A stretch of 64,000 nucleotides of DNA from an uncultured Granulosicoccaceae bacterium (GTDB lineage: Bacteria > Pseudomonadota > Gammaproteobacteria > Granulosicoccales > Granulosicoccaceae). A program made the translations under genes and the position numbers. Below are positions 3,014 to 48,534 of the stretch, piece after piece (the first letter of the stretch is position 1; the number at the start of each line of letters is the position of its first letter). Below the pieces are notes generated by a model. The model worked only from the letters and a program-made list of their open reading frames with translations. It was not told the DNA's origin and ran no database searches. The stretch lies in contig CALLBO010000071.1 in assembly GCA_937998875.1 (NCBI GenBank), positions 8,087-72,086 of the forward strand. Reading direction: 5' to 3'.

Positions 3014-3061
3014 ACCTTGCCAGTAAATCGCAGCAGGTAGCACCTGCTCGATAAGCAATGC

Positions 3062-4965: not shown

Positions 4966-5352
4966 GCGTTACCGGTAACTGTGTATCCGGCAAATTTAAT
5001 GGATGGGCATGATCGTCGGCAGATGATCATACCCATCTGCCAAGTCTACCAATCCACGTATGACCACGGTATTTCACACCCTTAGCTGCCAGGCCGGAGA
5101 TGATGTGACCTTAGATGATAACGGCTGTAAACGTTAAAAAGTGCTTCGCTCAAGGGTAACGACGCAACTTTAGCTACCCATGAAGGCAATGTTCAGTAAA
5201 CTGACGCTAGTCTGGAGCCGAACTCCGACGTAGTGGATCGGCGCATCTGCCAGGATATGTCTTGCAAGCTGACCATCCACTTAGTTACCGTTGGCGTCCT
5301 GAACCATGTTGCTTACGAGCGTATCCAGTCCTTCAATAAGGAGCTAGTCCCG

Positions 5353-30799: not shown

Positions 30800-31118
30800 C
30801 TGCGGGATCTTCTTTCGGTGGAACAAACGTTGGATCGTTAGGGTTAAGGAATATGAAGTGCATCTCACCACCTTCCATTTCCACGTAATCGAGTTCGGTA
30901 CCGGCTAGCAAGGGTTTGTGCTCTTTGGCAATAACTACATCAATACCGGCACTGGCAACCATTGCATCACCCGGACCTGCTTCATCAAAACCCATCTGAT
31001 ACTCGATTGCACCCTCAGCAGTCTTTTGTGCAGCAACACGCAGCGGCATGTCATCAAAATCGTGATGTATCATGCTGCGCTTTAGCTCTGTTGCTGCCGC
31101 TTTGGTGACTTTGAACAC
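30777..31118 (-). CDS. dsrR: DsrR, an IscA/HesB-like protein lacking the cluster-ligating cysteines
   Basis: GTG at 31118, with GAGG 10 nt upstream and 7 nt after the dsrN stop. FKVTKAAATELKR...PLRV...LDYVEMEGGEMHFIFLNPN aligns with the IscA fold, and the protein contains no Cys. Its position after dsrN matches A. vinosum. Confidence 0.7.
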   Translation of the reverse strand: MFKVTKAAATELKRSMIHHDFDDMPLRVAAQKTAEGAIEYQMGFDEAGPGDAMVASAGIDVVIAKEHKPLLAGTELDYVEMEGGEMHFIFLNPNDPTFVPPKEDPADGNESAR

Positions 31119-32517: not shown

Positions 32518-32519
32518 GA

Positions 32520-33734
32520 CTAGGTGACTTGGTCCGAAATATCCGCCACCGGCTCTATCACGTGTGCGCTAACCGGTAGTACACGCAAGAAAAAGCCAAG
32601 TAGCAACATCGACAGCGCCACGCCACCCATTCCCAGCCCCCACTCCCAGACACTCGGAAAGTAACTGGCAAAGCCAGCATCACCAAAGGTACTTGATGTA
32701 ACTTCCTTTCCAGGAAAAAGGTTTTGCGGGATAAGTTGTGACCCGATAATTGTGCTGTAGAGAATCATTGCACTGCCAAACAGTGCAGCCACACAGCTTA
32801 GTAACCATTGCTTTTGGTTAATTGCCTCGATAATTCGCTGTCTGCTCACCAGCCAGACGCATACGCCAAAGAGTGTAATATGACCCAGCCAGAACGGCAG
32901 TGCCATCGGCCCGGTAAACATGGTGCGTTCATCACTGCTATGTTCTGACACATATAAATTGGTCAGGTGATGAACCACAGAGAAATATAGTAAGGCCAAC
33001 AAACACCAAAGCATAAGTTTGGAAAACTGTCTGATGGTATTCGCAGGAACTGGTGTACCCTGCCAGCGCGAAACCAGCGCCACCACCAGCGCGAAGACAG
33101 CCGATCCCATCACCAGAGATAAAGCGATAAACAATGGGGCCAGAATGGCCGTGTCGAGTGCACTGCGCCCAACCAGAAAGCCGAAAATACTACCGGTACC
33201 CGTGGTGAGAACAATACGCCATAAAAGTGCTAACGCCCCGATCGACGCGATATATCTGTTTAATGATCGATCAAGCAGAGTCGCAAGATAAACCACACAA
33301 ACCGCGATAAAGCCGGTATACAAGAAAATATTCCATGAGAATATTGACCGGAAATTATAAGTGGTCATTGCAATGAAAAGCCGATCCGGACGACCCAGGT
33401 CCAGCACTAAAACCAGTAGTCCGCTTATTAGCAGGCAGATAGCTAACACTACTGACAATCGCGCCCAGGGTTTATGCATCGATTGATTGAAAACGGAAGA
33501 CAATGTGGCACTATTAAGCGCACCGGAGGCAGCGAGTATCAGTGAGATGGCAAACACATGTGGTAAACCCCAGACAACACGGTTGTTCATACCACTGATG
33601 TGGTGCCCTTCATGCTCCATTGTATAAGCACAGTAGCCGCCAATGACAACCAGCAATGCCATTGCGAGCATCCAGACCAGGTAATTGCCACGTATCGGTT
33701 TAACGATCTGATGATCTGCGATAATGGAGGCCAT
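32520..33734 (-). CDS. dsrP: DsrP, a NrfD/PsrC-like integral membrane subunit
   Basis: ~10 TM helices. Start at MASIIADHQ, 10 nt after the dsrO stop. Operon context. Confidence 0.85.
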   Translation of the reverse strand: MASIIADHQIVKPIRGNYLVWMLAMALLVVIGGYCAYTMEHEGHHISGMNNRVVWGLPHVFAISLILAASGALNSATLSSVFNQSMHKPWARLSVVLAICLLISGLLVLVLDLGRPDRLFIAMTTYNFRSIFSWNIFLYTGFIAVCVVYLATLLDRSLNRYIASIGALALLWRIVLTTGTGSIFGFLVGRSALDTAILAPLFIALSLVMGSAVFALVVALVSRWQGTPVPANTIRQFSKLMLWCLLALLYFSVVHHLTNLYVSEHSSDERTMFTGPMALPFWLGHITLFGVCVWLVSRQRIIEAINQKQWLLSCVAALFGSAMILYSTIIGSQLIPQNLFPGKEVTSSTFGDAGFASYFPSVWEWGLGMGGVALSMLLLGFFLRVLPVSAHVIEPVADISDQVT

Positions 33735-33744
33735 AGATGCTCTG

Positions 33745-34491
33745 TTACAAACCCTGGTAGCGGACACCGGTATTGAGTTGCAAATCAGCGCGAATCTGAC
33801 TGCCACCCAGGGTGTTTAACTTTTGCGAAATAGAACTGTCCGGATCATTCAGATCACCAAAGGTAATTGCACTGTGTGCTTCCTCAGTGCATTTCACCGC
33901 ACAGGCCGGCTGCCTATCCTGCTCTTCATCTATTCGATGAACGCAGAGTGTACAACTCTCTACCGTGCCCTTTCCCCTGGGTGCAGATGGCTTTTGTTCA
34001 GTCAGTGTTTCATGAATAAAAGATCGCGCCTTATAAGGACACGCCATCATACAATAACGACAACCAATACACGTGTGCTTGTTGACCAATACAACACCAT
34101 CAGCACGCTTAAACGATGCACCGGTCGGACAGACATCAACACAAGGCGCTGATTCACAGTGCTGGCACATCACAGGTAGTGAGGTTTCGTTGCCGGTTAG
34201 TTCGTCTTTAAGATCAATTTTTCGAATCCATTGGGCGCGGGTAAGATCGTCACCGGCGTCGTCTATACCGTGCTCCTCGTTACAACCCCGAACGCAGGCA
34301 TCGCAACCACTGCTGCACTTTTCGGTCTCTATTAACAATCCCCAGCGCTTATCTGATGAAGCCGGGGTTTTGGCCTTAACCTCGAGCAATGAATAAGACA
34401 TTGATGCCATACCCGCGAGACCAAGTCCCTGCAGAAACCGGCGACGTGCCTGCAAAGATTTTTCATTATCTGCGACCGGGACTCTACTCAT
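33745..34491 (-). CDS. dsrO: DsrO, a periplasmic 4Fe-4S ferredoxin subunit (Tat signal)
   Basis: RRRFLQGLG twin-arginine motif and several CxxCxxCxxxCP clusters. Confidence 0.85.
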   Translation of the reverse strand: MSRVPVADNEKSLQARRRFLQGLGLAGMASMSYSLLEVKAKTPASSDKRWGLLIETEKCSSGCDACVRGCNEEHGIDDAGDDLTRAQWIRKIDLKDELTGNETSLPVMCQHCESAPCVDVCPTGASFKRADGVVLVNKHTCIGCRYCMMACPYKARSFIHETLTEQKPSAPRGKGTVESCTLCVHRIDEEQDRQPACAVKCTEEAHSAITFGDLNDPDSSISQKLNTLGGSQIRADLQLNTGVRYQGL

Positions 34492-34981
34492 TGGCTTCTT
34501 TGTTCAATAGGTACGAAACCAGGGTATGCGGGTTATCTCGCATAAGGTGCGGCTCTGCATTGCCAATCACTTCCATCGCCGCAGGCTTTGCCGCATGACA
34601 GGTGAAGCAATCAATCTTGACCGCGGCATAGCTATGGCAACTCTCGCAGAACTGACCCTCGGCATCTATTCGAATTGCCTGGCCACTGGTATCAGTTTGC
34701 GCATGGCAATTGACGCAACTGACCAGACTATACGGTTCACTTCTAATCCCTTCAATGACAGTTTCATCGCGCTGATGATTCAGCAGACTCATGTGGTCTT
34801 TGCGCATGATCTCCGTATCTGCGACACACTGATCACCTTTGCTGGCTTTAGGAATCACAGGCCTGTTTTCTGCCTGACTACCGGCACGTTGTAACAATAG
34901 TCCCTGCGCGGTAGCAGCACCAAACGCGCACAATGGCAAACAGACTATTAGCGCCGTTATACGCATAGACTGGTTTTCCAT
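34484..34981 (-). CDS. dsrJ: DsrJ, a periplasmic triheme cytochrome c
   Basis: Three heme motifs: CVNCH, CESCH and CFTCH. Signal peptide MRITALIVCLPLCAFGAATAQG. The start is 34981 or 34966. Confidence 0.85.
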   Translation of the reverse strand: MENQSMRITALIVCLPLCAFGAATAQGLLLQRAGSQAENRPVIPKASKGDQCVADTEIMRKDHMSLLNHQRDETVIEGIRSEPYSLVSCVNCHAQTDTSGQAIRIDAEGQFCESCHSYAAVKIDCFTCHAAKPAAMEVIGNAEPHLMRDNPHTLVSYLLNKEANE

Positions 34982-35162
34982 CCTGCTAACAGTTGCCGGC
35001 ACTGAATCTGTAAAGCCACCCTCCCTTTGGGAGGGTCCGACTCTAAGCTTGGGTCGTCCACAAGCCATACGAAGATCCGTCCCCGGCGCTTAGACGCCGA
35101 CCCTTCCGTGAGCGGGAGGGCGTCAATAGGAGCTACTGCCTGTTCGGTAGCAGGATAGAACA

Positions 35163-37121
35163 CTAGTGACCCATGCCCATATCAATGTAGCCGGACGGAC
35201 AAACGTCCGCACAAATGTGACAACCAATACATTTGTCATAGTCAGTATCTACATAACGCCCTGTGGTGCTCTTGTCTTTCTTTACCCGGAATACCGCATC
35301 CTGTGGGCAGTAAATCACACAGTTATCGCACTCAAAACACATACCGCAACTCATGCAACGACCGGCCTCAGCCTTAACCTGCTCTTCAGTCAACAACTCC
35401 ATGCGTTCTTCAAAATGACTGAGAACTTCCTCACCGGATGGTACGTTCTCTTCGCGTTTATTGCGATCCTCTTCTTTCCAATGTCCTAAAAACAAACCTT
35501 CTGCATTTGCTATCTCACTGGCAGAGCGATCTTCATAGTTATGTACCGCAAACTCTGCCGCATCTGTACCCCAGTCTGCCGGCCGATCATATTCAGCCAC
35601 CGAAAGATTGGCTTCGTTAAGTTTTTCCATCAGATTAAAATGATAAACATCAATTTTTGGGCGCTTATGCATTGACTGATCAGTCAGGTAGTTCTCAATG
35701 GTGGTAGCAACCACTGTTGCCTGGCCAATCGCTGTCGTAAGCAAATGTGGCCGGATGATATCACCGGCAACAAAGTGCCCGGGTCGATCATCCACCTGAT
35801 AGTAAGCATCGGCATTAATCAGTCCGCGACCGTTATCGAGTTCTTCCAAGCCTTCAAGGTTACCACCCTGACCGATAGCCGAGACAATCAAGTCAGCTTT
35901 GATCTCATACTCTGACCCTTCAACAGGCTCAGGCACTCCCTCCTTACTGACAGTACATTCACACATGACCACGCTCACAGCACGGCCACTATCATCCTTG
36001 TTAACACGCACTGGCATGACGCTGTTCTGGATATCTACACCTTCTGTCAGTGCATCATGGACTTCATGTTCTGCTGCAGTCATCGCAGTCCGAGGCAACA
36101 GTGAAGTCAGCGTGACGTTGGCGCCAATTCTCTGGGCTGCCATCGCAACATCGTGCGCAACGTGACCGTGTACAACGAGCTCCGGTCGTTCAAGTGCGTT
36201 TTGTTTGGTGATCTTACCAAGGCGGCGTGCGACCGATACAACATCAATCGACGTATCACCACCCCCGACGCAAACTACATTGTCAGTGGTAGTTTGCAAT
36301 CGACCGGTATTAAAAGCCTCAAGAAACTTAACACCGGAAACACAGTTGGGCGCATCACCGCCTTCCACCGGCAACGCTCTGCCAGACTGACAGCCTATTG
36401 ACCACAGAATGGCATCGTAGCCCTTCTCAAGCTGTTCAATAGTAATGTCAGTGCCGACTCTGGTGCCGAGCACAACTTCTATGTCACCCATCTTAACGAT
36501 GCGATTGATTTCGGCATCAAGCATTTTTCTCGGTGTTCTGTAGCCTGGAATACCGTAGCGCATCATGCCACCGAGCTCATCGTGCTCATCGATAATTGTA
36601 CAGGCTATTCCCTTGCGCCGAAGCTGATACGCGGCAGCCATACCGGCAGGGCCTCCACCAATAATCGCTACACGTTTACTGGTTTTCAGTGGCCCTGACT
36701 CAAAGGCAAATTCTTCTTTAATGGCAGTATCACCGATGTATTGCTCCACCGCATTGATACCAACAAAATCATCTACCTCATTGCGATTACAACCCGCCTC
36801 ACACGGCGCCGGGCACACCCGTCCCATCTGTGACGGAAACGGATTCGCATCGGTAGAACGACGGAATGCATACTCCTGCCAACTGATGCCTTCCGGTGGT
36901 TTTTCAATACCGTTGGCAATCTGTAACCAGCCGCGAATATCCTCACCTGACGGACAACTCCCCTGACAAGGTGGAGTACGGTTAACATAAACCGGACACT
37001 TGTGCGATTCATCCGCATTAAAGATGTCGTCGGTCCAGCTTTTCCATTTGTGGTCACCGTCTTTGTACTTGCGAAACGTATGGTTCTCAGACTTTTCAGT
37101 TTTACTCCATGGAGTCGTCAT
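35163..37121 (-). CDS. dsrL: DsrL, a GltD-like NAD(P)H:acceptor oxidoreductase with a C-terminal ferredoxin domain
   Basis: Contains IIGGGPAGMAAAY (FAD), VCVGGGDTSIDV (NAD(P)H), N-terminal Cys clusters and a C-terminal CMSCGMCFECDNC...CIGCHICADVCP. Confidence 0.85.
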   Translation of the reverse strand: MTTPWSKTEKSENHTFRKYKDGDHKWKSWTDDIFNADESHKCPVYVNRTPPCQGSCPSGEDIRGWLQIANGIEKPPEGISWQEYAFRRSTDANPFPSQMGRVCPAPCEAGCNRNEVDDFVGINAVEQYIGDTAIKEEFAFESGPLKTSKRVAIIGGGPAGMAAAYQLRRKGIACTIIDEHDELGGMMRYGIPGYRTPRKMLDAEINRIVKMGDIEVVLGTRVGTDITIEQLEKGYDAILWSIGCQSGRALPVEGGDAPNCVSGVKFLEAFNTGRLQTTTDNVVCVGGGDTSIDVVSVARRLGKITKQNALERPELVVHGHVAHDVAMAAQRIGANVTLTSLLPRTAMTAAEHEVHDALTEGVDIQNSVMPVRVNKDDSGRAVSVVMCECTVSKEGVPEPVEGSEYEIKADLIVSAIGQGGNLEGLEELDNGRGLINADAYYQVDDRPGHFVAGDIIRPHLLTTAIGQATVVATTIENYLTDQSMHKRPKIDVYHFNLMEKLNEANLSVAEYDRPADWGTDAAEFAVHNYEDRSASEIANAEGLFLGHWKEEDRNKREENVPSGEEVLSHFEERMELLTEEQVKAEAGRCMSCGMCFECDNCVIYCPQDAVFRVKKDKSTTGRYVDTDYDKCIGCHICADVCPSGYIDMGMGH

Positions 37122-37150
37122 ATCGTTTTCACCTAATCCTATTCAAGACA

Positions 37151-38662
37151 CTATGCGTCGGCTGAAAAAACCAGTGCATCACCCACCAATTGATGCACGC
37201 TGATTATCTGATCCATTTCGAAACCGTAGTACGGCAATACTTTTGAGAACTGGCTTTTACATATGGCGCAGATAGCTGCCATGTGTGTGACCTGGTGTTG
37301 CTCATGTACATCTTTCAGCGCCTGCATTCTTGGCTTTGCACCTTTAACTCGCAGCTCCAGCAAATCATCGGTTAGTAAACCACCGCCACCACCACAACAG
37401 AATGTCCCCTCCCCAATAGTGTCACGCGGCATATCAAAAAAGTGATTACAGCTGGCTTTGATAACGTCACGTGGCAACGTGAGCTGTCCACCCGGCTTGT
37501 TTCCCATACGTGATGCACGCGCGACATTGCAGGAGTCGTGAAACGTTACACGTTTATCGTCGTTAGCAGACTTGTCGAGTTTTAACCGACCCTGTTCCAT
37601 CAGGTCGTGGGTGACTTCAATAATATGTTGCGGCACCGGATACCGGCTATCGAGAAAATCAAACGGCCCGGCCAATGTATTGAGAAAGCTGTACGCGACT
37701 CGCCAGGCATGACCACATTCCCCAAAAACAATTCTTTTAACGCCCAGTTCAAGGGCAGCTTCACGGATGCGTACCGCAACCTGCTTCATGTTGTCGACAC
37801 TGCCAATAAAAAGACCGAAGTTCGCTGCCTCTGAAGCATGCGACGACAACGTCCAGCTGATTCCTGCCTGATGGAATACTTTGCCATATCCAATGAGACC
37901 ATCAATATGTGGCTCTGCAAAGAAATCTGCCGACGGAGTAACCAGCATAACTTCCGCACCTTTGACATCAAGCGGGAATTTAACCTTAACATTGATCTCT
38001 TCTTCGACGTCTTCCTCTAAACCCTCAAGCGTATCGGCAAGTGCGGGTTCCGGCAGTCCGAGGTTGTTACCCAGCTTGTGTACTTTGCCGATAATCTCGT
38101 TACAGTACTTTTGACCTTTTCCAATGGTATCCATGATCTCGCGGGCAGCCATAGAAACCTCCGCGGTATCTATGCCGTAGGGGCAATACACAGAACAACG
38201 TCTGCACTGAGAACATTGATGAAAATACTTATACCATTTGTCGAGCATCTCCTCATCGAGATCTTTAGCGCCGACAAGCTTTGGCAGATACTTACCCGCC
38301 ACCGTGTAGTGTCGGCGGTAGACGGAACGCAATAAGTCCTGTCTTGCGACTGGCATGTTATTCGGATCTCCGGTACCGAGAAAGTAATGACACTTGTCTG
38401 TACAGGCACCACACTTAACGCAGCTATCAAGATAGACTCGCAACGCGCGCGAGTTATCTACCAGCTCACCAAGCTTTGTTACCGCCACTTCCTGCCAGTT
38501 ATCAACCAGCTCACCGGGAAAGCCGATGGCTTCATTGATTGCAGCCTTGGCAACGAAGGGCTGGCTGTGATCCATCGACCCCGGTGTGACCGCAGGAACT
38601 TCGGTGTAGTCACCCAGTACCGGTGTTTCGAACTCAGGTTTTTTTTCAGGCTTTTTTGCCAT
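37151..38662 (-). CDS. dsrK: DsrK, the HdrD-like catalytic subunit (Fe-S and CCG domains)
   Basis: Contains CVKCGACTDKC and CSQCRRCSVYCP, plus CCG-type motifs (FHDSCN..., TFCCGGGGG). The start overlaps the dsrM end by 17 nt. Confidence 0.9.
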   Translation of the reverse strand: MAKKPEKKPEFETPVLGDYTEVPAVTPGSMDHSQPFVAKAAINEAIGFPGELVDNWQEVAVTKLGELVDNSRALRVYLDSCVKCGACTDKCHYFLGTGDPNNMPVARQDLLRSVYRRHYTVAGKYLPKLVGAKDLDEEMLDKWYKYFHQCSQCRRCSVYCPYGIDTAEVSMAAREIMDTIGKGQKYCNEIIGKVHKLGNNLGLPEPALADTLEGLEEDVEEEINVKVKFPLDVKGAEVMLVTPSADFFAEPHIDGLIGYGKVFHQAGISWTLSSHASEAANFGLFIGSVDNMKQVAVRIREAALELGVKRIVFGECGHAWRVAYSFLNTLAGPFDFLDSRYPVPQHIIEVTHDLMEQGRLKLDKSANDDKRVTFHDSCNVARASRMGNKPGGQLTLPRDVIKASCNHFFDMPRDTIGEGTFCCGGGGGLLTDDLLELRVKGAKPRMQALKDVHEQHQVTHMAAICAICKSQFSKVLPYYGFEMDQIISVHQLVGDALVFSADA

Positions 38663-39359
38663 GACCACTCAGTGACGGGTTGTGTTGTCGTTCCCGCGGA
38701 TTGTCGACCTGATTTCTGGAAGGGCTGAAAAATAGCCCTGGAGCATGCAATAACTTGGAGAACGGAAATATCAACAGCAGAATCGCCACAAGTATGAGAT
38801 GCATGAACAACACAAAACTACCGGGCAGTGAAGCGAACTGAAATGAAAGCAGACCTTGTGCAAACTGTTTTACTGCAACGATATCTGTGTGCCAGAAAAA
38901 GCGCATCAATAAACCGCTGGCTGCAATGCCAAGTATAAGAAACAACATCAGGAAATCAGATGGAGCAGATATCGCCCGAACCCGGTCAACCACCACTCTA
39001 CGTGCAAGAAGACCGATCAGGCCGACTAACATCGCTAGCCCTGCAAACTTGCTAAACGGTGCAAGTAACGCAACCCAACCCCAGACAGGGTCGGTGAAAT
39101 AACGCAAATGGCATAACAGCGCGACCAACATACCGGCATGGAACAACCAGCTGAAAATCCAGGTTGGTTTAGATGCCTTAAACAGACTGTCAAAAAAGAC
39201 CACTTCTCTTGCCATGCGCCACACCACACCCGCGCGTGTGGTCGGTGCTGGTGTGGTAGGTATCTTAAGTGGAGCCGGGGTAGTTGCGTACTGGTAGATT
39301 TTTCGACCAACGCCAAGTACCAATACCACCAAAGACAGGTATAGCATTGCACTCATCAT
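38646..39359 (-). CDS. dsrM: DsrM, a NarI-like diheme b membrane subunit
   Basis: 5 TM helices with conserved His residues. Position is between dsrC and dsrK. Confidence 0.85.
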   Translation of the reverse strand: MMSAMLYLSLVVLVLGVGRKIYQYATTPAPLKIPTTPAPTTRAGVVWRMAREVVFFDSLFKASKPTWIFSWLFHAGMLVALLCHLRYFTDPVWGWVALLAPFSKFAGLAMLVGLIGLLARRVVVDRVRAISAPSDFLMLFLILGIAASGLLMRFFWHTDIVAVKQFAQGLLSFQFASLPGSFVLFMHLILVAILLLIFPFSKLLHAPGLFFSPSRNQVDNPRERQHNPSLSGHGKKA

Positions 39360-39398
39360 GGCGTTGGCGCGTCCTGTTCAGATGTCTGCAACAGGCTC

Positions 39399-39737
39399 TT
39401 AAACGCAACCGGTTGGCTTTGGCAGGCCGGCGTACTTACAGGCCTGCTTGGCCGGTCCATAAGGATACAATTCATAAAGATATTTGCCGTTGCCGTATTC
39501 TTTACCAAGCTTCTTGCCAATCGCTTTGGTCAGAACACGTACCGCAGGTGCGATTTGATATTCCTCATAATACTCACGCAGGAAGTTGATCACCTCCCAG
39601 TGATTGTCCGTGAGTTCACAATCGTCGATCTCAGCCATGACGTTGGCCACACCAGGCTCCCAGTCGGCGAGGTTTTCAAGATAACCCTCTTCGTCAGTCG
39701 CCAGCTCTTTGCCGTTTACTTCGATACTGTTAGACAT
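39399..39737 (-). CDS. dsrC: DsrC with both C-terminal redox-active cysteines
   Basis: 112 aa. Ends ...AKQACKYAGLPKPTGCV, with a penultimate Cys and a second Cys 10 residues upstream. Contains NHWEVINFLREYY. Confidence 0.95.
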   Translation of the reverse strand: MSNSIEVNGKELATDEEGYLENLADWEPGVANVMAEIDDCELTDNHWEVINFLREYYEEYQIAPAVRVLTKAIGKKLGKEYGNGKYLYELYPYGPAKQACKYAGLPKPTGCV

Positions 39738-39796
39738 ATGTAGTCTCCGCTTTGTCGGCAGTGCTCAGTGATGCCGAACTTTAGATATGGTGCTCA

Positions 39797-40105
39797 TCAG
39801 AGCCAAGAGTGCACTCTATCATGCTCGGTAACCAGAGCAACGAAACCTTTGTAATCGACCGCAGTCAGCCCGTCGAGAAGTGACCTGTCAGCCAGCCCAC
39901 GTGCCTCCAGGTCAGGGGTTAGGACATAGAGTTTTTTATCTGCAGTTGCAGTCTTAAGCTGAGAGTCGTATGAGGTGCCACTCATTGCAACAACAACAGC
40001 ATCTTCTATTAAAATCACCGCATCATCTTTGCTGATCCGCGACAGACACTGATCAAGTGTACGTTTTTCAAACGGTGACTTATTGATTATGTTCAGTGTA
40101 GACAT
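39797..40105 (-). CDS. dsrH: DsrH (TusB-like)
   Basis: 102 aa, with DAVILIEDAVV motif. Operon position follows dsrF. Confidence 0.85.
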   Translation of the reverse strand: MSTLNIINKSPFEKRTLDQCLSRISKDDAVILIEDAVVVAMSGTSYDSQLKTATADKKLYVLTPDLEARGLADRSLLDGLTAVDYKGFVALVTEHDRVHSWL

Positions 40106-40107
40106 GA

Positions 40108-40491
40108 TTAGAAACTCAGTACTACGTCTTGCTGATCGATCAGCTCATTAACCCTGGCACGATCTATCATTTCAACGCCTACCAGTAAATCATCTGCGCT
40201 AAGGCCGCGCTCCTGTAGTGATTCTGTCTCTACGTAGAGCTTTTCAACGTCGTACATTTCAAGCGCCCGGTAGGCTTTTGAGAAATTCTTGAACTCTATT
40301 GATTCTGTATTTTGATCTTTCTTCAGCTGAAATACGCCATCATCAATAAATAGCATACTGACATCCTGATCAAATGCAGCGCCGATTAACACTGTTTCCA
40401 GTGATTCAATTGCATACGCAGTGCCATGTGGAACACGCCTGTTGATGTAGATAAACTTTTTCTCTACACCGCCACTGTATTCTTCTTCCAT
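40108..40491 (-). CDS. dsrF: DsrF (TusC-like)
   Basis: 127 aa. Contains FIYINRRVPHGTAYAIESLE...FIDDGVFQL. Confidence 0.85.
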   Translation of the reverse strand: MEEEYSGGVEKKFIYINRRVPHGTAYAIESLETVLIGAAFDQDVSMLFIDDGVFQLKKDQNTESIEFKNFSKAYRALEMYDVEKLYVETESLQERGLSADDLLVGVEMIDRARVNELIDQQDVVLSF

Positions 40492-40501
40492 CTTTGTCTT
40501 C

Positions 40502-40894
40502 TTAGTCTCCGAATGTCACTAGACGATCAGACTCGATACCGGCCTCTATCAACTGACCAAGCCCGGAGATACGAAACCCGTCAGCAACGTTGGTGGCGTC
40601 TTTCTTATTGCGATCTCGCTCACCTTCATCAACCATACCTCGCCGTTGACACGCAGCGACACACAATACCAGATCAACCCCCTTTTCCTGTGCAAGTGCC
40701 GACCATCGCTTTTGTATGTGGCGATCATCCTGTGGCGGGGTAGTCAGGTTAGTGCCGTTATTAACCCCGTCGTGATAGAAAAACACACGCGGTACTTCAT
40801 GGCCCGATTCGAGCGCTGCCAAGGCAAACTGATAAGCGCTGTCAGATGCCTGATGCTGATACGGACCTTCATTAACAAGAATCGATATTTTCAA
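40502..40894 (-). CDS. dsrE: DsrE (TusD-like), sulfur-transfer subunit
   Basis: 130 aa. Contains MKISILVNEGPY... and the active-site context LVLCVAACQRRG. Confidence 0.9.
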   Translation of the reverse strand: MKISILVNEGPYQHQASDSAYQFALAALESGHEVPRVFFYHDGVNNGTNLTTPPQDDRHIQKRWSALAQEKGVDLVLCVAACQRRGMVDEGERDRNKKDATNVADGFRISGLGQLIEAGIESDRLVTFGD

Positions 40895-40909
40895 CAGAGA
40901 CGACTCGAA

Positions 40910-42022
40910 TCAAAAACGGATATGACTTGAGGAATTAAGGCTCTTGCGAGCACCACGCCAGTTATCAATATGGAACTTGGTAAACGGCAGTTCGGTGATC
41001 TCAAAGAACCGCGGCCAGCCGATACGATCAATCCAGTCATTGATTCGCTCCCAGTCGCGTGCGTCTTCCTTATAGGCATAGAGAATTTTCTTGACCACCG
41101 CCGTGGCTTCAGGCCAGCGCGGCGGATTATTGGGTATGCCTGCTGCGACGAGTTTTTGAAACGAAGGTTTGCTGCGGGCATTGGAATGATTACCCCCAAC
41201 CCAGACAGCAAGCTTAGAATGCTCCGGGTCATTGATTTGCATCGGCGGACACGGCGGATAGCAGGCACCACAACAAATGCACTTTTTCTCATCAACCTCG
41301 AGAGATGGCTTACCGTTCACCATGGCTGGTCGAATCGCCGCTACCGGGCAACGGGCAACCACTGAAGGTCGCTCACAAACGTTAGCAACAAGATCATGAT
41401 TAATCTTCGGCGGCTTGGTGTGCTGTATATTGATAGCGATATCACCCTGCCCGCCACAGTTAATTTGACAGCACGATGTAGTGATATGTACCCGATTTGG
41501 CATCTCTGCGTGGGTGAACTCATGAATAAGCTCATCCATCATCGACTTAACAATACCTGACGCATCGGTTCCCGGAATATCGCAATGCAACCAGCCCTGG
41601 GTATGGGAAATCATTGCCACAGTGTTTTGCGTACCACCAACAATAAAGCCTGCGTCAGTGAGTGCTTTGATTAACGGTTGAACCTTGGCTTCAGCATCCA
41701 CCATGTATTCTATATTTGAGCGAATGGTAAAACGAACATGCCCGTCGCCATACTCATCACCAATATCACAGAGCTTTCTGAGAGTGTAGACATCAAGGAT
41801 ACGCTGAGTACCAGCCCGAACAGTCCAGATAGACTCACCGCTTGCAGCGGTATGGCATAACACTCCAGGTTGCGGATGTGTGTGACTTTCCCACTGGCCA
41901 AAGTTTCTTAGCATCACCGGATGGACATATTGCATACCATCCGGGCAACCGCTCTCAATGGCTGGTCGCATTTGCTTTTTGGCAGGTTTGCTTGCTGATT
42001 TCCCGGCAGGTGTAGTCGCCAT
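40910..42022 (-). CDS. dsrB: dissimilatory sulfite reductase beta subunit (oxidative type)
   Basis: The ATG lies 1 nt after the dsrA TAA, with GGAGG inside the dsrA end. Contains siroheme/Fe-S Cys motifs and a ferredoxin insert KCICCGACYPPCP. Confidence 0.95.
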   Translation of the reverse strand: MATTPAGKSASKPAKKQMRPAIESGCPDGMQYVHPVMLRNFGQWESHTHPQPGVLCHTAASGESIWTVRAGTQRILDVYTLRKLCDIGDEYGDGHVRFTIRSNIEYMVDAEAKVQPLIKALTDAGFIVGGTQNTVAMISHTQGWLHCDIPGTDASGIVKSMMDELIHEFTHAEMPNRVHITTSCCQINCGGQGDIAINIQHTKPPKINHDLVANVCERPSVVARCPVAAIRPAMVNGKPSLEVDEKKCICCGACYPPCPPMQINDPEHSKLAVWVGGNHSNARSKPSFQKLVAAGIPNNPPRWPEATAVVKKILYAYKEDARDWERINDWIDRIGWPRFFEITELPFTKFHIDNWRGARKSLNSSSHIRF

Positions 42023-42023
42023 G

Positions 42024-43307
42024 TTACGCACCTCCTGCTGCAGCGTCTTTGTCCTGCTCTTTGCGCTCAAACCATTTAGCTGCTTCGGCGTCCCACTCAT
42101 CCATTCTGACGTAGGAGCTTTCACGTGGATGATCGATCATTGCAGGGTCGACTTCGACACCAATACCTTCAAGGAAATTCACCAGACCGATACGTTCAAT
42201 CATCTCGCCGGTACGTTCGTGCTCAAGCGCATTTTCTGCAAAGAAGTCGATGGTCTCTTCCGCTATCTCTGTAATGCGCTCAAAGTCTTCATCTGTTTCA
42301 AGCTTCATGAATGGCACAATGACTGTACCGAACAGGTCACCGATTTTTAGCGTTCGTTTACCACCAATTAAAATACTAACGCCTTTATCGTCACCCGGGC
42401 TGAATGCCGTTGGCACAACATTGAGACAGTGCATACAACGTACACAGTTGCGATTATCTACTTCAATACTGTCATCATCTTTTAAAGCCAGCGCCTTGGT
42501 TGGACAGCGGGTGATGATGTTGTCGATCACGTGTTGTCTGCCCTTTCGATCGACATAGTCTTTAAATGCTTCCTGATCGACTTTCATGTCATCACGCCAT
42601 GTACCAATGACTGCAAAGTCAGCGCGTTCGATCGAGTTCATGCAGTCATTCGGGCAACCTGAGACCTTAAACTTGAACTTGTATGGCAACGCAGGGCGAT
42701 GAATGTCGTCAACAAAGTTGTTTACCAACTCACGATGCACGCGGTGCTCATTGGTGCATGACATTTCGCAACGCGCACTTCCAACACAAGACATAGCCGT
42801 TCGCACACAGGGCCCGGCCCCCCCCAGGTCAAACCCGTAGTCGTTGATCTCATCAAAGAAGTGCTGTGTGTTTTCGGTCGTTGAACCGATGAACATAATA
42901 TTGCCGGTCTGACCGTGAAAGGTCACCAGGCCTGAGCCGTGTTTCTCCCAGCTATCTGCAAGCGTGCGCAACACGTCTGTACTGTAGTGGTTGCCAGCCG
43001 GAGGCTGAACGCGCAAGGTGTGGAATTCTCGCGACTCCGGAAACATATCGCCGACTTCTGAGAATCTGGGAATAATTCCGCCACCATAGCCATAAACACT
43101 GACAGTGCCGCCCTTCCAATATCCTTTACGGGTCTTATAAGAGTGCTCGAGCTGACCGAGAAGATCATTGGCCATGCCGTTGACCCGGTCACTCGGGTGA
43201 TCATCACGCAGACGTTTAATACCAGAGACAAAACTCGGCCAGGGCCCCGTCTCGAGGTGATCCAGCATCGGCGTGTCGTGTTTTTTCCCGGACTCCGAAT
43301 CTGTCAT
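42024..43307 (-). CDS. dsrA: dissimilatory sulfite reductase alpha subunit (oxidative type)
   Basis: Contains CVGSARCEMSC (Cx5C...Cx3C), GCPNDC and the ferredoxin insert CVRCMHC. 427 aa. Confidence 0.95.
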   Translation of the reverse strand: MTDSESGKKHDTPMLDHLETGPWPSFVSGIKRLRDDHPSDRVNGMANDLLGQLEHSYKTRKGYWKGGTVSVYGYGGGIIPRFSEVGDMFPESREFHTLRVQPPAGNHYSTDVLRTLADSWEKHGSGLVTFHGQTGNIMFIGSTTENTQHFFDEINDYGFDLGGAGPCVRTAMSCVGSARCEMSCTNEHRVHRELVNNFVDDIHRPALPYKFKFKVSGCPNDCMNSIERADFAVIGTWRDDMKVDQEAFKDYVDRKGRQHVIDNIITRCPTKALALKDDDSIEVDNRNCVRCMHCLNVVPTAFSPGDDKGVSILIGGKRTLKIGDLFGTVIVPFMKLETDEDFERITEIAEETIDFFAENALEHERTGEMIERIGLVNFLEGIGVEVDPAMIDHPRESSYVRMDEWDAEAAKWFERKEQDKDAAAGGA

Positions 43308-43350
43308 CTACTCTGCCTCTCTGTTGCCGGTTTCCCAGGTCATTTTAGAT

Positions 43351-43377
43351 CTTATAGTCTTGCGTAATTCCTGCCAA
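43351..43377 (-). promoter_or_regulatory. candidate sigma70 promoter of the dsr operon
   Basis: On the minus strand: TTGGCA, 15-nt spacer, TATAAG, ~45 nt upstream of the dsrA ATG. Confidence 0.25.
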
Positions 43378-43513
43378 TAACCCTTTGTGCAAACGCCCGT
43401 CCAGTGACCTATCTCCAAAGGCATAGGCACATATCGCATCGTAAAACGCCTCGACTACGCTGGTTGAGAGGATAGCACCAGCAGTGTATCGTGACTCAGC
43501 TTTCCGATGAACA

Positions 43514-44434
43514 GTGAGCAATAAAGACTTGTTACTTCCTGCCTCTGCATTTCTCTCACAACCCGCGGGCTTTGTCCGATGGAGAGAGCTCAGGCTTGCC
43601 ATCCAGCGCGAGATGCAGCCGACAGTGGTTCAACTCAGCCCATCATTAACCACTGATGACGACGTACAAAATCTAAAACGGCTTTGCAGTCAGGTCGCAG
43701 CGATTGGTTTCTGCGTTTATGAATGGACTGAAGCAACAGAAGAGACAAACCGGGAGGTCCTGGCGCTTCACAGACGCTTATCGCTGGGAACCAGCGATCG
43801 GGGAGTTGTACAACAATCCGATGGCTTGTCACTGTTAGCCGATCTGTCTGATACTGATCAAGGACGCTTTGTGCCCTACACAGCTCGCGCAATGGGCTGG
43901 CATACAGATGGTTACTACAACCCTACGGATCAAAACGTAAGATGCTTCACACTCCACTGCTTGCAACCAGCTGCTACCGGGGGCGCACTTTCTCTCATGG
44001 ATGACCAGTTGTTGATCATCAAACTAATAGAAAAAGCACCGGAACTTGTCGACCTACTGAGCCACCCTGAGGCGATGATGATACCGGGCAACACCGACGA
44101 GCTCGGTCACGACCGTCCAGACTGCTATACACCGGTACTGTTTACCCACGCTGACGGGATACCGGCAACCCGCTTCACAACCAGACTCAGAAACATTAAG
44201 TGGCGAAACGATGAGACTAAAACCGCTGCTGAAACGATGAAGCAATTAATAGAATCGGGCACTGATCAGCACCACACTGTGAGGCTTCAGGCAAATCAGG
44301 GCATGGTGACCAGAAACATTCTGCATCGCCGGGAAGCTTTTACTGATGATCATCTTCACCGCAGGCAAATGCTGCGTGGCCGGTATCTGCAGTTACCACA
44401 ATTAACAGATAATCAGTTAGCGGGTGCATACTAG
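43514..44434 (+). CDS. Fe(II)/2-oxoglutarate dioxygenase of the TauD/gamma-butyrobetaine hydroxylase type
   Basis: WHTDGYY (HxD) and ...NILHRREAF (distal His plus Arg), spaced as in the clavaminate-synthase-like fold. The start is uncertain (GTG 43514 or ATG 43613). Confidence 0.65.
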   Translation: MSNKDLLLPASAFLSQPAGFVRWRELRLAIQREMQPTVVQLSPSLTTDDDVQNLKRLCSQVAAIGFCVYEWTEATEETNREVLALHRRLSLGTSDRGVVQQSDGLSLLADLSDTDQGRFVPYTARAMGWHTDGYYNPTDQNVRCFTLHCLQPAATGGALSLMDDQLLIIKLIEKAPELVDLLSHPEAMMIPGNTDELGHDRPDCYTPVLFTHADGIPATRFTTRLRNIKWRNDETKTAAETMKQLIESGTDQHHTVRLQANQGMVTRNILHRREAFTDDHLHRRQMLRGRYLQLPQLTDNQLAGAY

Positions 44435-44625
44435 TGCTGCATGTGAGTGATTTGTTATTGCAGCACCGCGAAGTCAACACGTTTGAAGAGTTTGTTGAAG
44501 TCGTCAAATTACGTGCCCTGGATGAAATGTTTTTCCGTATTGATCTTAAACCGCCATTCCCGGACACTCCTGAAAACTGGGACATGGTCCTCGAGGCCGC
44601 CTTCAGTAGCGCAAACAAACCGTGA
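44434..44625 (+). CDS. 63-aa hypothetical protein, translationally coupled on both sides
   Basis: The GTG start overlaps the upstream TAG (TAGTG). Its TGA overlaps the next GTG start (GTGA). Confidence 0.4.
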   Translation: MLHVSDLLLQHREVNTFEEFVEVVKLRALDEMFFRIDLKPPFPDTPENWDMVLEAAFSSANKP

Positions 44626-45371
44626 TTCACAGCACTGAAAATAACTCTGCAGATGAACTGAAGCTATCTGCTGCAGAACGTCTGTTGATGGATGATGCAG
44701 GCTACGCCGACAGACAGGATCGTCTTGAGACACTTAAAGAACAATCAAAACAGATCAATAACCCTGTTGAGCTCGCCGCCATTAACCTGGAAATGGCCGG
44801 TCTGCACCTCGACCTGGACGAAAAAAAACAGGCGGCTGTCAAGCTTAACGGACTAGTTGAAATCTTCATTCAACATGCGCAGTTTGAAGACGCAGCAAGA
44901 GCATGTCAGTACCGCTATCTATGTGAAGAGGAAGATTCGATCAGTGCTATCGGACAAGCCGCATGGTTATCAGTTACCTACCCGGTTGATCCCAATTTAA
45001 CGGTAAGCGTTCTTGATCAAATTATTGATGAGACACCGGACGAGTCTGATGGCGCTGCTGTTGCTGCAGCCACCGCCCACTATATTGTTGACCTGCGGTG
45101 CGACCCTGCAGAGAAAAAACATCTGCAACTATTTACCGGCTCGATGCTTGCGCGGGTTGCCAAACGACACAGCAAGATAGAGGATGATGACCAGTTTCAA
45201 CTTTGGGTCCGCACGATGGAACTCGACGAGCCAGAGAAGTTTCTGGTGAGACTGCGCAATGTGATTGACGTTTTGGTACAAACAGACTGGCTGTTTGATC
45301 GTGAGATCCTGCAAAAGCAATTGCCGGACAATCCCGATCATGACATCGACAATACCGGTGCAGATCTCTGA
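44622..45371 (+). CDS. acidic, predicted helical hypothetical protein
   Basis: 249 aa with no recognisable motif. Coupled to its neighbours by GTGA and TGATG overlaps. Confidence 0.5.
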   Translation: MIHSTENNSADELKLSAAERLLMDDAGYADRQDRLETLKEQSKQINNPVELAAINLEMAGLHLDLDEKKQAAVKLNGLVEIFIQHAQFEDAARACQYRYLCEEEDSISAIGQAAWLSVTYPVDPNLTVSVLDQIIDETPDESDGAAVAAATAHYIVDLRCDPAEKKHLQLFTGSMLARVAKRHSKIEDDDQFQLWVRTMELDEPEKFLVRLRNVIDVLVQTDWLFDREILQKQLPDNPDHDIDNTGADL

Positions 45372-46054
45372 TGAATTTATGGCAGGAGAATAGCGACGAA
45401 GTTTCCACCGCCCGGTCATCAAGCATGGCGGATGTGGTATTTAAAATTGAATGCAGACAGCTACCGGTTGACCATGCCGCCGAACTCGCAGAGGCACTTT
45501 GCAAAACGGCACCCTGGATAAAAGACCTGCCAGGAGCCGGTATTCATCCGATACACGTAGCAGGATCCCAAAACGGCTGGCAACGCCCTGACTCCTCAGG
45601 CAACGAACCATTGATTCTATCCAAAAGAACCCGCCTACGGGTTCGCTGCCCTGTTGATCGCGCAAAAGATCTTGTTGACGCGTTAACGGGTAGTCAACAT
45701 AGAATAGGCGCAGAAAATCTAGATATCCTTTCAGGTAGACCGGTACAGCTACAGCAATCTGCAGCTTTATTCTCACGCTACCTTACCTATAAAAACCCAC
45801 CTAAAGATGAAGACGAACTTTTAAGAAATGTTTTAGATGAGTGCGCTGCACTAAACTTTCAACCAACCAAACTGCTGTGTGGCAAGTCCACTATAGTCTC
45901 CACCGCTCAAGGCGACCTCGAAGCGAGAAGCCTGCTAATAGCGGACGTGCCACCCGGTTTCTCACTACAGTTACAAGAAAACGGACTCGGCGATTTTCGG
46001 TTAATGGGTTGCGGAATAATCATTCCACACAAAGATACTGAAGCAGTTAGCTGA
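45371..46054 (+). CDS. orphan Cas6/Cmx6-like RAMP-fold protein
   Basis: N-terminal DVVFKIECRQLPVDHAAELAEAL, central SKRTRLRVRCP, and a C-terminal glycine-rich loop LQENGLGDFRLMGCGIIIP. From memory these resemble Cas6 of subtype I-MYXAN. The start is either 45371 (TGATG coupling) or ATG 45425. Confidence 0.5.
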   Translation: MNLWQENSDEVSTARSSSMADVVFKIECRQLPVDHAAELAEALCKTAPWIKDLPGAGIHPIHVAGSQNGWQRPDSSGNEPLILSKRTRLRVRCPVDRAKDLVDALTGSQHRIGAENLDILSGRPVQLQQSAALFSRYLTYKNPPKDEDELLRNVLDECAALNFQPTKLLCGKSTIVSTAQGDLEARSLLIADVPPGFSLQLQENGLGDFRLMGCGIIIPHKDTEAVS

Positions 46055-46118
46055 ATCACGCCCGGCACACATCCATAGCGCTTTACTTTCAGCGCCCGAA
46101 TTTACCCCAAGATGAAGA

Positions 46119-46775
46119 TCAAGAAACCCCGATAGTGTTTTCACTTCTGTTAACACTGATCTCTGCCTCAGCAAACCTTTCTACAATGCCCTGCAGCACG
46201 GATAAGCGCTCTAACGGATCACTCATCGCGATTACACTATCGCGCTCACCTACAGTCATCGGCAGTAGTTCAGTTAACCGATTACTCACCCACGCGGCAT
46301 CTGCATAATTTGAGCTTGCATACTCAATGAAAGGCTTCACACGATTATAAACACGCCGTAACAGGTCAGATAGTTCGCGATGACACGACGGAAGCGCAAC
46401 TTTCTTCTCAGGTGGCAGCATTTCGACTTCTCCGATTACCAACCCGTTTGAATTGGCCAGTCCTTTTGAATTGGCCAGTCCTTGTGAATTGGAGTGTGCC
46501 TCTACAACACAGAATCTCTGCAAACCTTCTACCACTATAACCAACAGACCATCACCTTCACGATCCCAATCGACAATATTCACCATTGTTCCGTGTCGGA
46601 TGACCTGTGCTGCGCAGGCTTCCGACGCGCCGTTGTCCAGATAGGAGCCGAATCCGCCACCATGCCTGACACACGCACTAACCATTGCGATATGGTGTTG
46701 CTCAATTATCTTTACGCGAAGATAACCTCCAGGAAGCACAAGACTCTTGAAAGGAAACAGCGGCAGTCTTCTCAT
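46119..46775 (-). CDS. LON N-terminal (substrate-binding) domain protein
   Basis: MRRLPLFPFKSLVLPGGYLRVKIIE matches the LPLFPL..V.FPG...L.IFE signature. Standalone Lon-N domain of ~218 aa. Confidence 0.75.
   Translation of the reverse strand: MRRLPLFPFKSLVLPGGYLRVKIIEQHHIAMVSACVRHGGGFGSYLDNGASEACAAQVIRHGTMVNIVDWDREGDGLLVIVVEGLQRFCVVEAHSNSQGLANSKGLANSNGLVIGEVEMLPPEKKVALPSCHRELSDLLRRVYNRVKPFIEYASSNYADAAWVSNRLTELLPMTVGERDSVIAMSDPLERLSVLQGIVERFAEAEISVNRSENTIGVS
46453..46488 (-). repeat. two tandem 18-nt units (ttggccagtccttttgaa / ttggccagtccttgtgaa) inside the Lon-N gene
   Basis: Encodes GLANSKGLANS within SNSQGLANSKGLANSNGL. Confidence 0.85.
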
Positions 46776-48162
46776 AAGCCGTCCACTGTCTCGATATAAA
46801 TGGTGATTCGCCGCCTGCGTCTCTTCACTGCTATTGACGCTATATGATTTTAAACATCCACTGTGCATGGGTTCTCCTTATACACTGACCAAGTTTTCAA
46901 TGACCGCTATTTATTAGTTTCTCCTAACAACATTATTATAGGGTCGCACCCACGAGTAACTGATTGTGCTGAGGTAAACTAGTGTCAATGCACGAGCTGT
47001 TTTTTGCTGGATTTCTGTATCTATTGTTTCAATTTTGCTGCATTCATACTTCAGGAGAACGACATTGTTAAATTCCATTTCATAAGCAAAACACAGGTCG
47101 ATTGCAATAGCCTATTACGAACGGAAATACAAAGACAGGGGAAACCACTGTAGGCCAGTGTTATTGGACTTTACCAGGAATGTCACTCCAGAAAATTTTG
47201 AAAATCCTTGTGAACTGACTAATTACCCAAGGTCCTTATGGAGTGTTATTTGCCTGTTGTGCTTTGAGTTGATTGCGGAGGCTACCAGTTAAGCTGCATT
47301 GAGAAAGATGCTTTCACGTAATGAATACAGCTACCGAGACAAGCCCTTTAAGGTAAAAGAACGTTGGTGTCGCCCAGAGCATTGTTGTAACAATCAATAC
47401 TCTCATCAATCTCTGAAGTGCACATCTCTTCTGTAAAGGTCCGGATACCCCAACTCGAACTAAAGCTGATTTCAGCATTATCTATTCTCAACCTTGCATT
47501 ATCGCCTGAACGGCAAAACCATTGAATCGCACCACAGTTTTTAGAAGCGTTTACTCCATCCAGTATTGTGACGTGATTGAATACCTTATCCCCTCTCCCC
47601 TCCAGACCCCATCCCAGCCGCGCTGGCTGGAATTACTGCCCCCCCTTTAACACCGGGTTTTCTAAACTTCCAATGGCGCTAAAGCCACCGTCGACGCTAA
47701 TAGTGGACTCGGGCGCATTTCAATTTCAGTACCGGGTTCAATCTGAAGTGAGCCATCGGCCACGCTTACCTCACAAACGCACGCACGGGCGAGTAACAGG
47801 CTGCTGCATCGTCGCTACAGCACGCCACGGCGCCGCCCGGTGTTGCGAGCCTGAAAAAGAAATTCAAGCATTCGACGCCGCTAACCCCACCACGAAGTGC
47901 AATTCACATTGAGGCTATATGTATGACAATGGGAATTTATTCTCATTGACACTACAGATTTTTCTCCGTAGAGTTCTAATTACAGTATCAGAGGGTATTT
48001 TTTCCCTTTATTTCTGCTGTAGTTGTGATTGCAACTACCGGGATGGACTGAATCTTTTGCTACCCGGTCGCACCGCAGACCAGTCGGCGTGGCGCACCGA
48101 CTAAGAACGCAGGCTAACGGCATTGACTACCCAATAGTCAGCCAAAGGAGAGGAGCTTCACC

Positions 48163-48534
48163 ATGGCATCATCAAATCCACTATCTATTGACCAACTTGA
48201 ACAGTTGGCAACACCCGCGAAAACCAACTACTTTGATCCGACTTTACAAAATCCAGTTAAGGAAAAGCGGGTCGACAGCGAAGGTAGATCATGGTGGGCA
48301 GTCATGTTTGGGCCTCTCTACCGATTGTTTCACGCAGTGCAACAACATCGGCAGGAACGGGAAACCTGCCTTTATTTACTATCGCTTGATGACTGTCACC
48401 TGGATGACATAGGTATTAACCGCGCCGATGTTGTATGGGCAATGCGTCAGCACAATCCCCTGTTGAGTGCATCTGCAGAACTCAATAAGTTGGTTCACGG
48501 AGATCGCAGGTCCGGTCCATCACCAAAAAAATAA
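48163..48534 (+). CDS. DUF1127-domain protein (unusually long)
   Basis: Strong RBS AAAGGAGAGGAG. The C-terminal LLSLDDCHLDDIGINRADV matches the DUF1127 signature. Confidence 0.7.
   Translation: MASSNPLSIDQLEQLATPAKTNYFDPTLQNPVKEKRVDSEGRSWWAVMFGPLYRLFHAVQQHRQERETCLYLLSLDDCHLDDIGINRADVVWAMRQHNPLLSASAELNKLVHGDRRSGPSPKK

Follow-up and report, generated by a model that had tools for sequence, protein, structure and literature searches.

The DNA analysed here, referred to as the window, is a stretch of 64,000 nucleotides from an uncultured Granulosicoccaceae bacterium (GenBank assembly GCA_937998875.1, contig CALLBO010000071.1, positions 8,087 to 72,086). It contains cas6L, a gene whose product has the fold of Cas6, the processing nuclease of clustered regularly interspaced short palindromic repeat (CRISPR) systems. 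The gene closes an operon in which it is preceded by dsrQ, s63 and p249. This operon starts opposite dsrA and diverges from a dsr cluster that we assign to the oxidative type, with dsrE, dsrF and dsrL present beside dsrA (Table 1). The s63 start overlaps the dsrQ stop, the s63 stop overlaps the p249 start and the p249 stop overlaps the cas6L start (TGATG); given these stop/start overlaps, translation is coupled along the operon. cas6L encodes a genuine Cas6-fold protein outside any CRISPR-Cas system, as judged for this genome across the 64-kb window, and its branch, a large, distinct part of the Cas6/Cmx6 family, accompanies the oxidative (reverse) dissimilatory sulfite reductase (dsr) locus of sulfur-oxidising bacteria as a conserved accessory gene.

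The assignment to Cas6 is solid, because profile searches match and a confident AlphaFold2 model retrieves Cas6 structures with Foldseek. The Pfam family PF09559 (Cas6 Crispr, Cas6/Cmx6) matches with an E-value of 3.8e-49 and 167.7 bits (cutoff 26.7), covering residues 21-221 of the protein (201 residues) and positions 2-190 of the 191 in the profile. Six PADLOC Cas6 models match as well, with up to 162.6 bits, and a profile built from 76 cas6L homologues finds the Cas6 of a type I-B CRISPR-associated transposon (CAST; PDB 8fcj_B) at an E-value of 1.9e-18. A preliminary description of this DNA had read the protein as Cas6 or RAMP (repeat-associated mysterious protein) from three strings, all of which lie in the gene on the forward strand (DVVFKIECRQLPVDHAAELAEAL from residue 21, SKRTRLRVRCP at residues 84-94 and LQENGLGDFRLMGCGIIIPHK near the C-terminus). 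The cas6/cmx6 profile search and the structural comparison that it proposed both yielded significant similarity to Cas6. Its suggestion that the first 18 residues form an optional leader did not hold: they belong to the genuine protein, as W4 and an M-x-x-W-Q-E pattern are conserved among homologues and the ATG is the one that overlaps the upstream stop.

The more specific label proposed for the protein, type I-MYXAN Cas6 (Cmx6), holds for the branch, which is Cmx6-like by PF09559, but not for membership of the NCBIfam equivalog TIGR02807: the match spans the full model length (3-197 of 197) at 92.6 bits, under the cutoff of 98.85. Relatives of cas6L linked to dsr genes score 92-119 bits, on both sides of this cutoff, and some pass it (99-119 bits; P0390/L083, P0463/L166 and P0394/L084). 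Since scores straddle the cutoff, some dsr-locus homologues have received the NCBI name 'type I-MYXAN CRISPR-associated protein Cas6/Cmx6', among them P0390 and P0463, which have no cas gene within 8-10 kb. The naming of these dsr-linked homologues is probably a systematic misannotation.

The AlphaFold2 model of cas6L, built on the homologue alignment, has a mean predicted local distance difference test (pLDDT) of 91.1 and a predicted template modelling (TM) score of 0.87. It predicts a beta-alpha-beta topology in each half, i.e., two tandem ferredoxin-like (RNA recognition motif, RRM) domains. In a Foldseek search against the PDB, the best matches were the type I-B CAST Cas6 chains 8fcu_B/8fcj_B (E-value 3e-16, TM-score 0.74-0.79), followed by Pyrococcus Cas6, Cse3 and CasE; 33 of the top 35 matches were Cas6-family proteins (Cas6, Cse3 or CasE). 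The glycine-rich loop from which the RAMP fold had originally been argued is present at residues 205-215 (GLGDFRLMGCG, pattern G-h-G-x5-G-h-G) and aligns to the E. coli CasE loop in profile comparisons; G205, G207, G213, C214 and G215 are invariant in the family alignments. R86, R92 and K221 are likewise invariant across the broad family, and almost the same is true of H220, W49 and W70. Conservation of R86, R92, H220, K221 and the loop is consistent with RNA binding. The clade carries a loop of its own (H59-x2-H62-VAGSQNGW-x-RP), and the 150 cluster members listed share the WQE N-terminus, a (P/L)-x-D-H-A motif, the loop in the form H-x-I-H-x-A-x-S-(G/Q)-N-G-W-x-R-P, the G-rich loop and a C-terminal P-H-K. 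Only three listed representatives, P0387 among them, lack the NGW loop. Standing alone, with no array or other cas genes around it, cas6L could in principle be a functionless, decaying relic of a lost CRISPR-Cas locus. The likelihood of this is close to nil: the gene has an intact reading frame, its predicted structure is well folded and of high confidence, hundreds of species keep the gene in the same operon, and 22 alignment columns are invariant across the 76 homologues at 44-81% identity, a conservation pattern by which a relic is effectively refuted.

The preliminary description had also called the gene an orphan, with neither an array nor further cas genes in the 64 kb, and repeat, Rfam and PADLOC searches bore this out. 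Tandem Repeats Finder, a direct-repeat search and a k-mer chain scan found no CRISPR array in the window, and Rfam gave no match at the gathering threshold over the 64 kb, nor at an E-value of up to 1 over positions 43200-48300. PADLOC, run on the 56 large ORFs (open reading frames) of the window, with ORFs below 120 aa such as a possible cas2 lying outside the scan, returned Cas matches to cas6L alone, plus a weak generic WYL match. Among 80 related genome loci, 78 have no array-like repeats within 10 kb on either side, and the remaining two show weak three-copy coding repeats. Neighbourhoods were in addition annotated with Pfam for the window contig and nine further members; eight of these neighbourhoods have multi-kilobase context backed by DNA, and one member on a 1.1-kb contig was left out as uninformative (its two neighbours had no Pfam look-up). 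Seven of the eight DNA-backed neighbourhoods contain dsr genes, the eighth is a 2.5-kb contig with genes of the operon alone, and none of the eight contains a cas gene.

The arrangement recurs widely. When one genome per GTDB species was scanned, at least 573 loci with a relative of cas6L were returned, and our counts are based on the best 80 of these (genome loci); another 80 (metagenome loci) were added by a scan that started from distant members with 33-41% identity to the window protein. The best 80 genome loci come from Granulosicoccaceae, many genera of Chromatiaceae (including Allochromatium, Thiocystis, Thiohalocapsa, Lamprocystis, Thiorhodococcus, Halochromatium and Imhoffiella), Candidatus Thiosymbion, Sedimenticola and Acidiferrobacterales. 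Where at least 5 kb of upstream sequence was available, dsrA lay upstream of cas6L, at a distance of up to 9 kb and on the other strand, at 61 of 64 genome loci and 14 of 16 metagenome loci. s63 was detected by tblastn at 71 of the 80 genome loci (67/75 genome and 61/63 metagenome loci when only those with enough upstream sequence are counted), p249 lies directly upstream of cas6L at 68/75 genome loci and at 20/63 metagenome loci of the distant branch, and the TauD-like gene is present at 36/70 and 30/33, respectively. Gene order at the metagenomic loci is that of the genome loci, and the divergent members P0366 and P0372 follow the same dsr-linked pattern. Among 1.84 billion cluster representatives searched with a profile, 190 clusters (50% identity) matched at E<1e-30, a number that rises to 620 at E<1e-10. 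Linkage of the cas6L clade to the dsr locus is thus conserved across several gammaproteobacterial families and a distant metagenomic branch.

The score below the equivalog cutoff, together with a dsr context devoid of CRISPR, therefore marks cas6L as a Cas6 paralogue that is independent of CRISPR and linked to dsr; it looks as though a CRISPR protein has been taken over for a different task. We consider it very improbable that the gene is an ordinary cas6 displaced from its system and serving in trans a CRISPR locus elsewhere in the genome, for example one of type I-C/MYXAN-like character. Type I-C systems normally process their CRISPR RNA (crRNA) with Cas5 and need no Cas6, which speaks against such a service. 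The window protein falls under the equivalog cutoff, the clade has an insertion and terminal motifs of its own, and the operon partners and the position next to dsrA are fixed in Granulosicoccaceae, Chromatiaceae, Acidiferrobacterales, Sedimenticola, Endothiovibrio and the distant metagenomic branch. On the other side, genuine Cas6 proteins are the nearest characterised relatives, the TIGR02807 cutoff is passed by some dsr-linked homologues, which bear the Cmx6 name, Cas6 genes are known that lie beyond cas operons or at their margin, as COG1853/COG5551 genes often do (Makarova et al. 2006, PMC1462988), a type I-C system devoid of cas6 occurs in at least one purple sulfur bacterium (PMC5944118), and the search for CRISPR loci in this genome spans the 64-kb window. 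Of the two origins weighed in the preliminary description, a RAMP domesticated within the neighbouring operon is strongly favoured over a displaced cas6 by the translational coupling and by the position beside dsrA, which is kept across families and in the distant branch. That the neighbouring locus is an oxidative dsr cluster had been overlooked.

Table 1 Features of the window; coordinates are window positions.
Feature	Coordinates	Strand	Assignment or remark
Repeat-bearing ORFs	1469-6594	+	Three large ORFs
NarL/LuxR-type response regulator gene	28633-29301	-	
NarX/NarQ-like histidine kinase gene	29282-30871	-	Kinase and regulator directly follow dsrN
dsr operon (dsrABEFHCMKLJOPN)	31126-43307	-	Oxidative type; divergent from the cas6L operon
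dsrN	31126-32517	-	CobB-like DsrN match
dsrP	32520-33806	-	DsrP match
dsrJ and dsrO	within the operon	-	Assigned by position and gene order alone
dsrL	35163-37121	-	NAD(P)-binding DsrL-like match
dsrK	37151-38668	-	DsrK match
dsrM	38646-39359	-	DsrM match
dsrC	39420-39755	-	PF04358
dsrH	between dsrF and dsrC	-	Assigned by position and gene order alone
dsrF	40108-40491	-	TusC/DsrF match
dsrE	40502-40894	-	TusD/DsrE match
dsrB	~40910-42000	-	
dsrA	42024-43307	-	TIGR02064, 609 bits
18-bp palindrome	43409-43426		CTATCTCCAAAGGCATAG; shared dsrA/dsrQ control region
dsrQ	43514-44434	+	TauD-like Fe(II)/2-oxoglutarate dioxygenase-like gene; PF02668, E-value 4.8e-15; first gene of the operon
s63	44434-44625	+	Acidic ORF of 63 aa; conserved ...DVKPPYPDTPENWE..LEAAF
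p249	44622-45371	+	Acidic all-alpha protein of 249 aa with tetratricopeptide (TPR)-like repeats; without Pfam family
cas6L	45371-46054	+	227 aa; two ferredoxin-like (RRM) domains; PF09559 match; last gene of the operon
Lon N-terminal-domain gene	46119-46868	-	PF02190
18-nt tandem repeat	46447-46492		2.6 copies, 96% matches; inside the Lon N-terminal-domain gene
Stretch with no convincing gene	46869-48162		GC about 0.46

The small ORF s63, not noticed earlier, was called as a gene by independent gene callers; its product has an isoelectric point (pI) of 4.6, and searches of Pfam, NCBIfam and the PDB returned no relatives. p249 (pI 4.5) has 1351 homologues, all unnamed, and no match in Pfam, NCBIfam or PADLOC. 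Its AlphaFold2 model (pLDDT 90.8) is predicted to be all-helical, with 14 helices in a TPR-like repeat, and has no significant fold match in the PDB. At the Endothiovibrio diazotrophicus locus (L083), a 66-aa DUF6967 protein (7792-7992) stands in place of p249; DUF6967 was rejected as a p249 relative (hhalign probability 0.2%). In most lineages other than that of the window, where it is lacking, cas6L is directly followed by a gene for a 112-aa paralogue of the DsrC family (PF04358; 45/73 genome loci and 30/47 metagenome loci). Examples are L018 9007-9342, L031 10751-11086 and L073 10734-11069, alongside about 70 other loci. This paralogue ends in ...AGLPxVxRKGGY and is devoid of both conserved C-terminal cysteines, and its gene often has a promoter-like motif of its own (..CATAAAATT.. 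/ ..CTAATATT..). The most Cmx6-like member, P0387 (152.9 bits to TIGR02807), lies on a 4.7-kb Logan contig (SRR26421363) in the order DUF6967, Cas6, DsrC, rhodanese, with neither dsr nor cas genes among the called genes of that contig; the link between Cas6 and the DsrC family therefore reaches beyond dsrAB loci.

Several further features of the window lie outside these operons. The Lon N-terminal-domain gene downstream of cas6L is not conserved beside it at other loci, and its tandem repeat encodes GLANSK-type repeats. The following 1.3-kb stretch, described earlier as lacking a convincing gene, indeed yielded no family match for its ORFs, no Pfam match for the largest of them and no Rfam match; its GC content is lower, and related loci show no nucleotide conservation of it. 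Near the other end of the window, three large ORFs carry 13 copies of a repeat of about 40 aa (about 100-130 nt from start to start, with a conserved 67-nt core) that encodes ..C..SDPDGDGFGWEN..SC.. and looks like a secreted repeat protein family. PADLOC also gave single-member matches among the 56 ORFs to mad3 (4.8e-33), mad8 (1.3e-16), RT-Protease_XI (8.7e-19) and AriA (8.6e-11), possibly through generic domains.

The cas6L operon and dsrA share a control region, which we count in favour of a retained RNA role for cas6L. This region holds an 18-bp palindrome that in the window deviates by one mismatch from the consensus CTATCCC-N4-GGGATAG. The palindrome is exact and single-copy in 20 related loci and, when at most two mismatches are allowed, occurs in 62 of 68 dsrA-upstream regions (for instance L021 8309-8326, L059 5055-5072 and L003 7881-7898). 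In several Chromatiaceae loci it abuts a TTGACC -35-like hexamer on the operon strand, and in relatives of the window it stands upstream of a promoter-like block for dsrA. Judged from its sequence and placement, it is probably a DNA operator for the divergent dsrA and dsrQ promoters. We also considered it as an RNA hairpin of the Cas6 type, which is less likely: on both sides it lies upstream of -35-like hexamers and therefore fits a DNA operator better. The NarL-type regulator encoded behind dsrN is a candidate for the protein that binds it. Chromatiaceae have a second element, aTTCCAC-N4-GGGaGGG, located 25-45 nt from the palindrome towards dsrA, and the trio of dsrN, kinase and regulator recurs in Endothiovibrio (L083 12168-14624).

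We tentatively propose that cas6L is an RNA-binding or RNA-processing regulator of dsr-locus transcripts, a role to which we give somewhat less than an even chance. The protein would keep the RNA-binding surface of Cas6, formed by the G-rich loop and the conserved Arg, Lys, His and Trp residues, and would recognise a specific RNA structure in a transcript of the dsr locus. By binding or cleaving this RNA it could adjust dsr mRNA stability, processing or translation, with post-transcriptional control of sulfur oxidation as the outcome, and the acidic s63 and p249 proteins may act as its subunits or modulators. Extended to the whole branch of about 190 clusters (50% identity) now auto-annotated as I-MYXAN Cas6/Cmx6, the proposal would make these proteins exapted, RNA-binding or RNA-cleaving post-transcriptional dsr regulators that work with s63, the TPR-like protein and the cysteine-less DsrC paralogue; in this full form it is a possibility that we regard as doubtful. 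Cas6 enzymes are endoribonucleases that need no metal and use a catalytic His/Tyr/Lys set. In cas6L a candidate catalytic histidine, H35 at the start of helix 1, is conserved in at least 90% of the close clade. In searches for shared sequence signals, the ribosome-binding-site-like motif GACGAGAGGAGC, found upstream of the DsrC paralogue gene, was not enriched in the window, and a scan for shared 9-mers was too noisy in GC-rich genomes to give a useful signal.

A number of observations weigh against this proposal. The predicted fold of the dsrA leader is no better than that of shuffled sequences (z = 0.49), the 100 nt upstream of the DsrC-paralogue gene at 96 loci have the mean pairing probability of the shuffled control and no hairpin at a fixed distance, and the dsr operon shows no conspicuous direct repeat or recurring hairpin. 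An alignment of 25 long dsrA-s63 intergenic regions with MAFFT contains two short conserved blocks only, and conserved primary sequence in the intergenic region is scant, the palindrome excepted. Members of the wider family have Y, N or Q in place of H35, CAST Cas6 does not conserve this residue either, and an equivalence to the catalytic histidine of CasE was rejected, as hhalign aligned the G-rich loop alone. The cas6L family is mildly acidic, with a median pI of 6.0-6.5 and 5-18% of members above pI 8 (the window protein has a pI of 5.6). E. coli CasE, the sole reference Cas6 compared for charge, is basic, with a pI that we take to be 9.6. The absence of CRISPR and cas genes from this genome is that of the 64-kb window, a scope that likewise counts against us. 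Finally, TPR-like, small acidic and DsrC-like partners would also suit a purely protein-binding role.

Such a role is the basis of a different explanation, in which the Cas6 fold has been turned into a module for protein binding or assembly that plays no part in RNA biology. A complex of cas6L, s63, p249 and the DsrC paralogue would then chaperone, modify (together with DsrQ) or regulate DsrC, DsrEFH or DsrAB. This is conceivable, though on balance we hold it to be unlikely. It would accommodate the acidic to neutral pI of the cas6L family and the strongly acidic s63 and p249, the TPR-like helical repeat of p249, which is typical of protein-protein scaffolds, the DsrC-family paralogue directly downstream of cas6L at the loci counted above, the divergent member in a cluster of DUF6967, Cas6, DsrC and rhodanese genes, and the failure to detect an RNA target in the dsrA leader, the regions upstream of the DsrC paralogue or the dsr operon. 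A loss of RNA binding is hard to reconcile with the protein itself, however, because the G-rich loop, the RNA-contacting hallmark of RAMPs, stays invariant and the Arg, Lys, His and Trp residues stay conserved across about 190 clusters; an acidic overall charge is moreover compatible with a local basic groove. The share of probability given to none of these explanations belongs to something not yet imagined.

The link between Cas6 and dsr genes has probably not been described so far. A full-text literature search of incomplete coverage turned up no publication that connects Cas6 or Cmx6 to dsr genes, and the term 'Cas6' gave no match in the full text of two recent papers on Dsr evolution, including one with synteny analyses in its abstract. 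The literature searched made no mention of s63, p249 or the Cas6-like gene behind dsrQ. If the proposal is true in its full form, for the whole branch, core energy metabolism would for the first time be seen to have recruited a CRISPR processing nuclease. For CRISPR biology, cas6L would represent a widespread and vertically conserved re-use of Cas6 outside immunity. The label 'Cas6/Cmx6' in Pfam and NCBI is systematically misleading in sulfur-oxidising bacteria and can inflate counts of CRISPR-Cas systems in genome surveys. The reverse-Dsr locus gains three conserved, unstudied genes (s63, p249 and cas6L) as well as a DsrC paralogue of the cysteine-less kind and a probable, conserved operator, and with them come concrete candidates for the control of dsr expression. 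Since cultured Chromatiaceae carry this module too, the hypothesis can be put to a direct test.

Among known systems, the Cas6 of the type I-B CAST (8FCJ/8FCU, chain B) is closest to cas6L in both sequence and structure and shares its two-RRM architecture and G-rich loop, at 24% identity over about 216 columns. It differs in being a Cascade subunit bound to crRNA, whereas cas6L has no Cascade genes or array nearby. It also shows a gap of 6 residues at the S-Q-N-G-W-x of the 15-residue H-x2-H-x-AGSQNGW-x-RP motif of cas6L, lacks the WQE N-terminal extension and the C-terminal PHK motif, and has D-N where cas6L has D-H. Cmx6 of type I-MYXAN (TIGR02807/PF09559) belongs to the same Pfam family and its model is matched over the full length; unlike Cmx6, cas6L does not reach the equivalog cutoff and its context is dsr rather than cas. 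Cas6e (CasE/Cse3) and Pyrococcus Cas6 have the same fold (Foldseek E-values 1e-8 to 1e-4). The G-rich loop of CasE aligns residue for residue with that of cas6L, sequence alignment is confined to the loop region, and the catalytic histidine of CasE has no demonstrable counterpart in cas6L. On the side of sulfur metabolism, dsrQ is the name given by Lenk et al. 2012 to the divergent tauD-like gene upstream of dsrA, a gene recognised as dsr-linked in aerobic chemotrophic sulfur oxidisers (both as related in PMC7596348). That dsrQ is the first gene of the cas6L operon, and the passage cited names the tauD-like gene alone. COG1851, a RAMP family not linked to CRISPR (Makarova et al. 2006, PMC1462988), differs from cas6L in belonging to another family with no reported link to sulfur metabolism, and it provides a precedent for a RAMP fold outside CRISPR-Cas.

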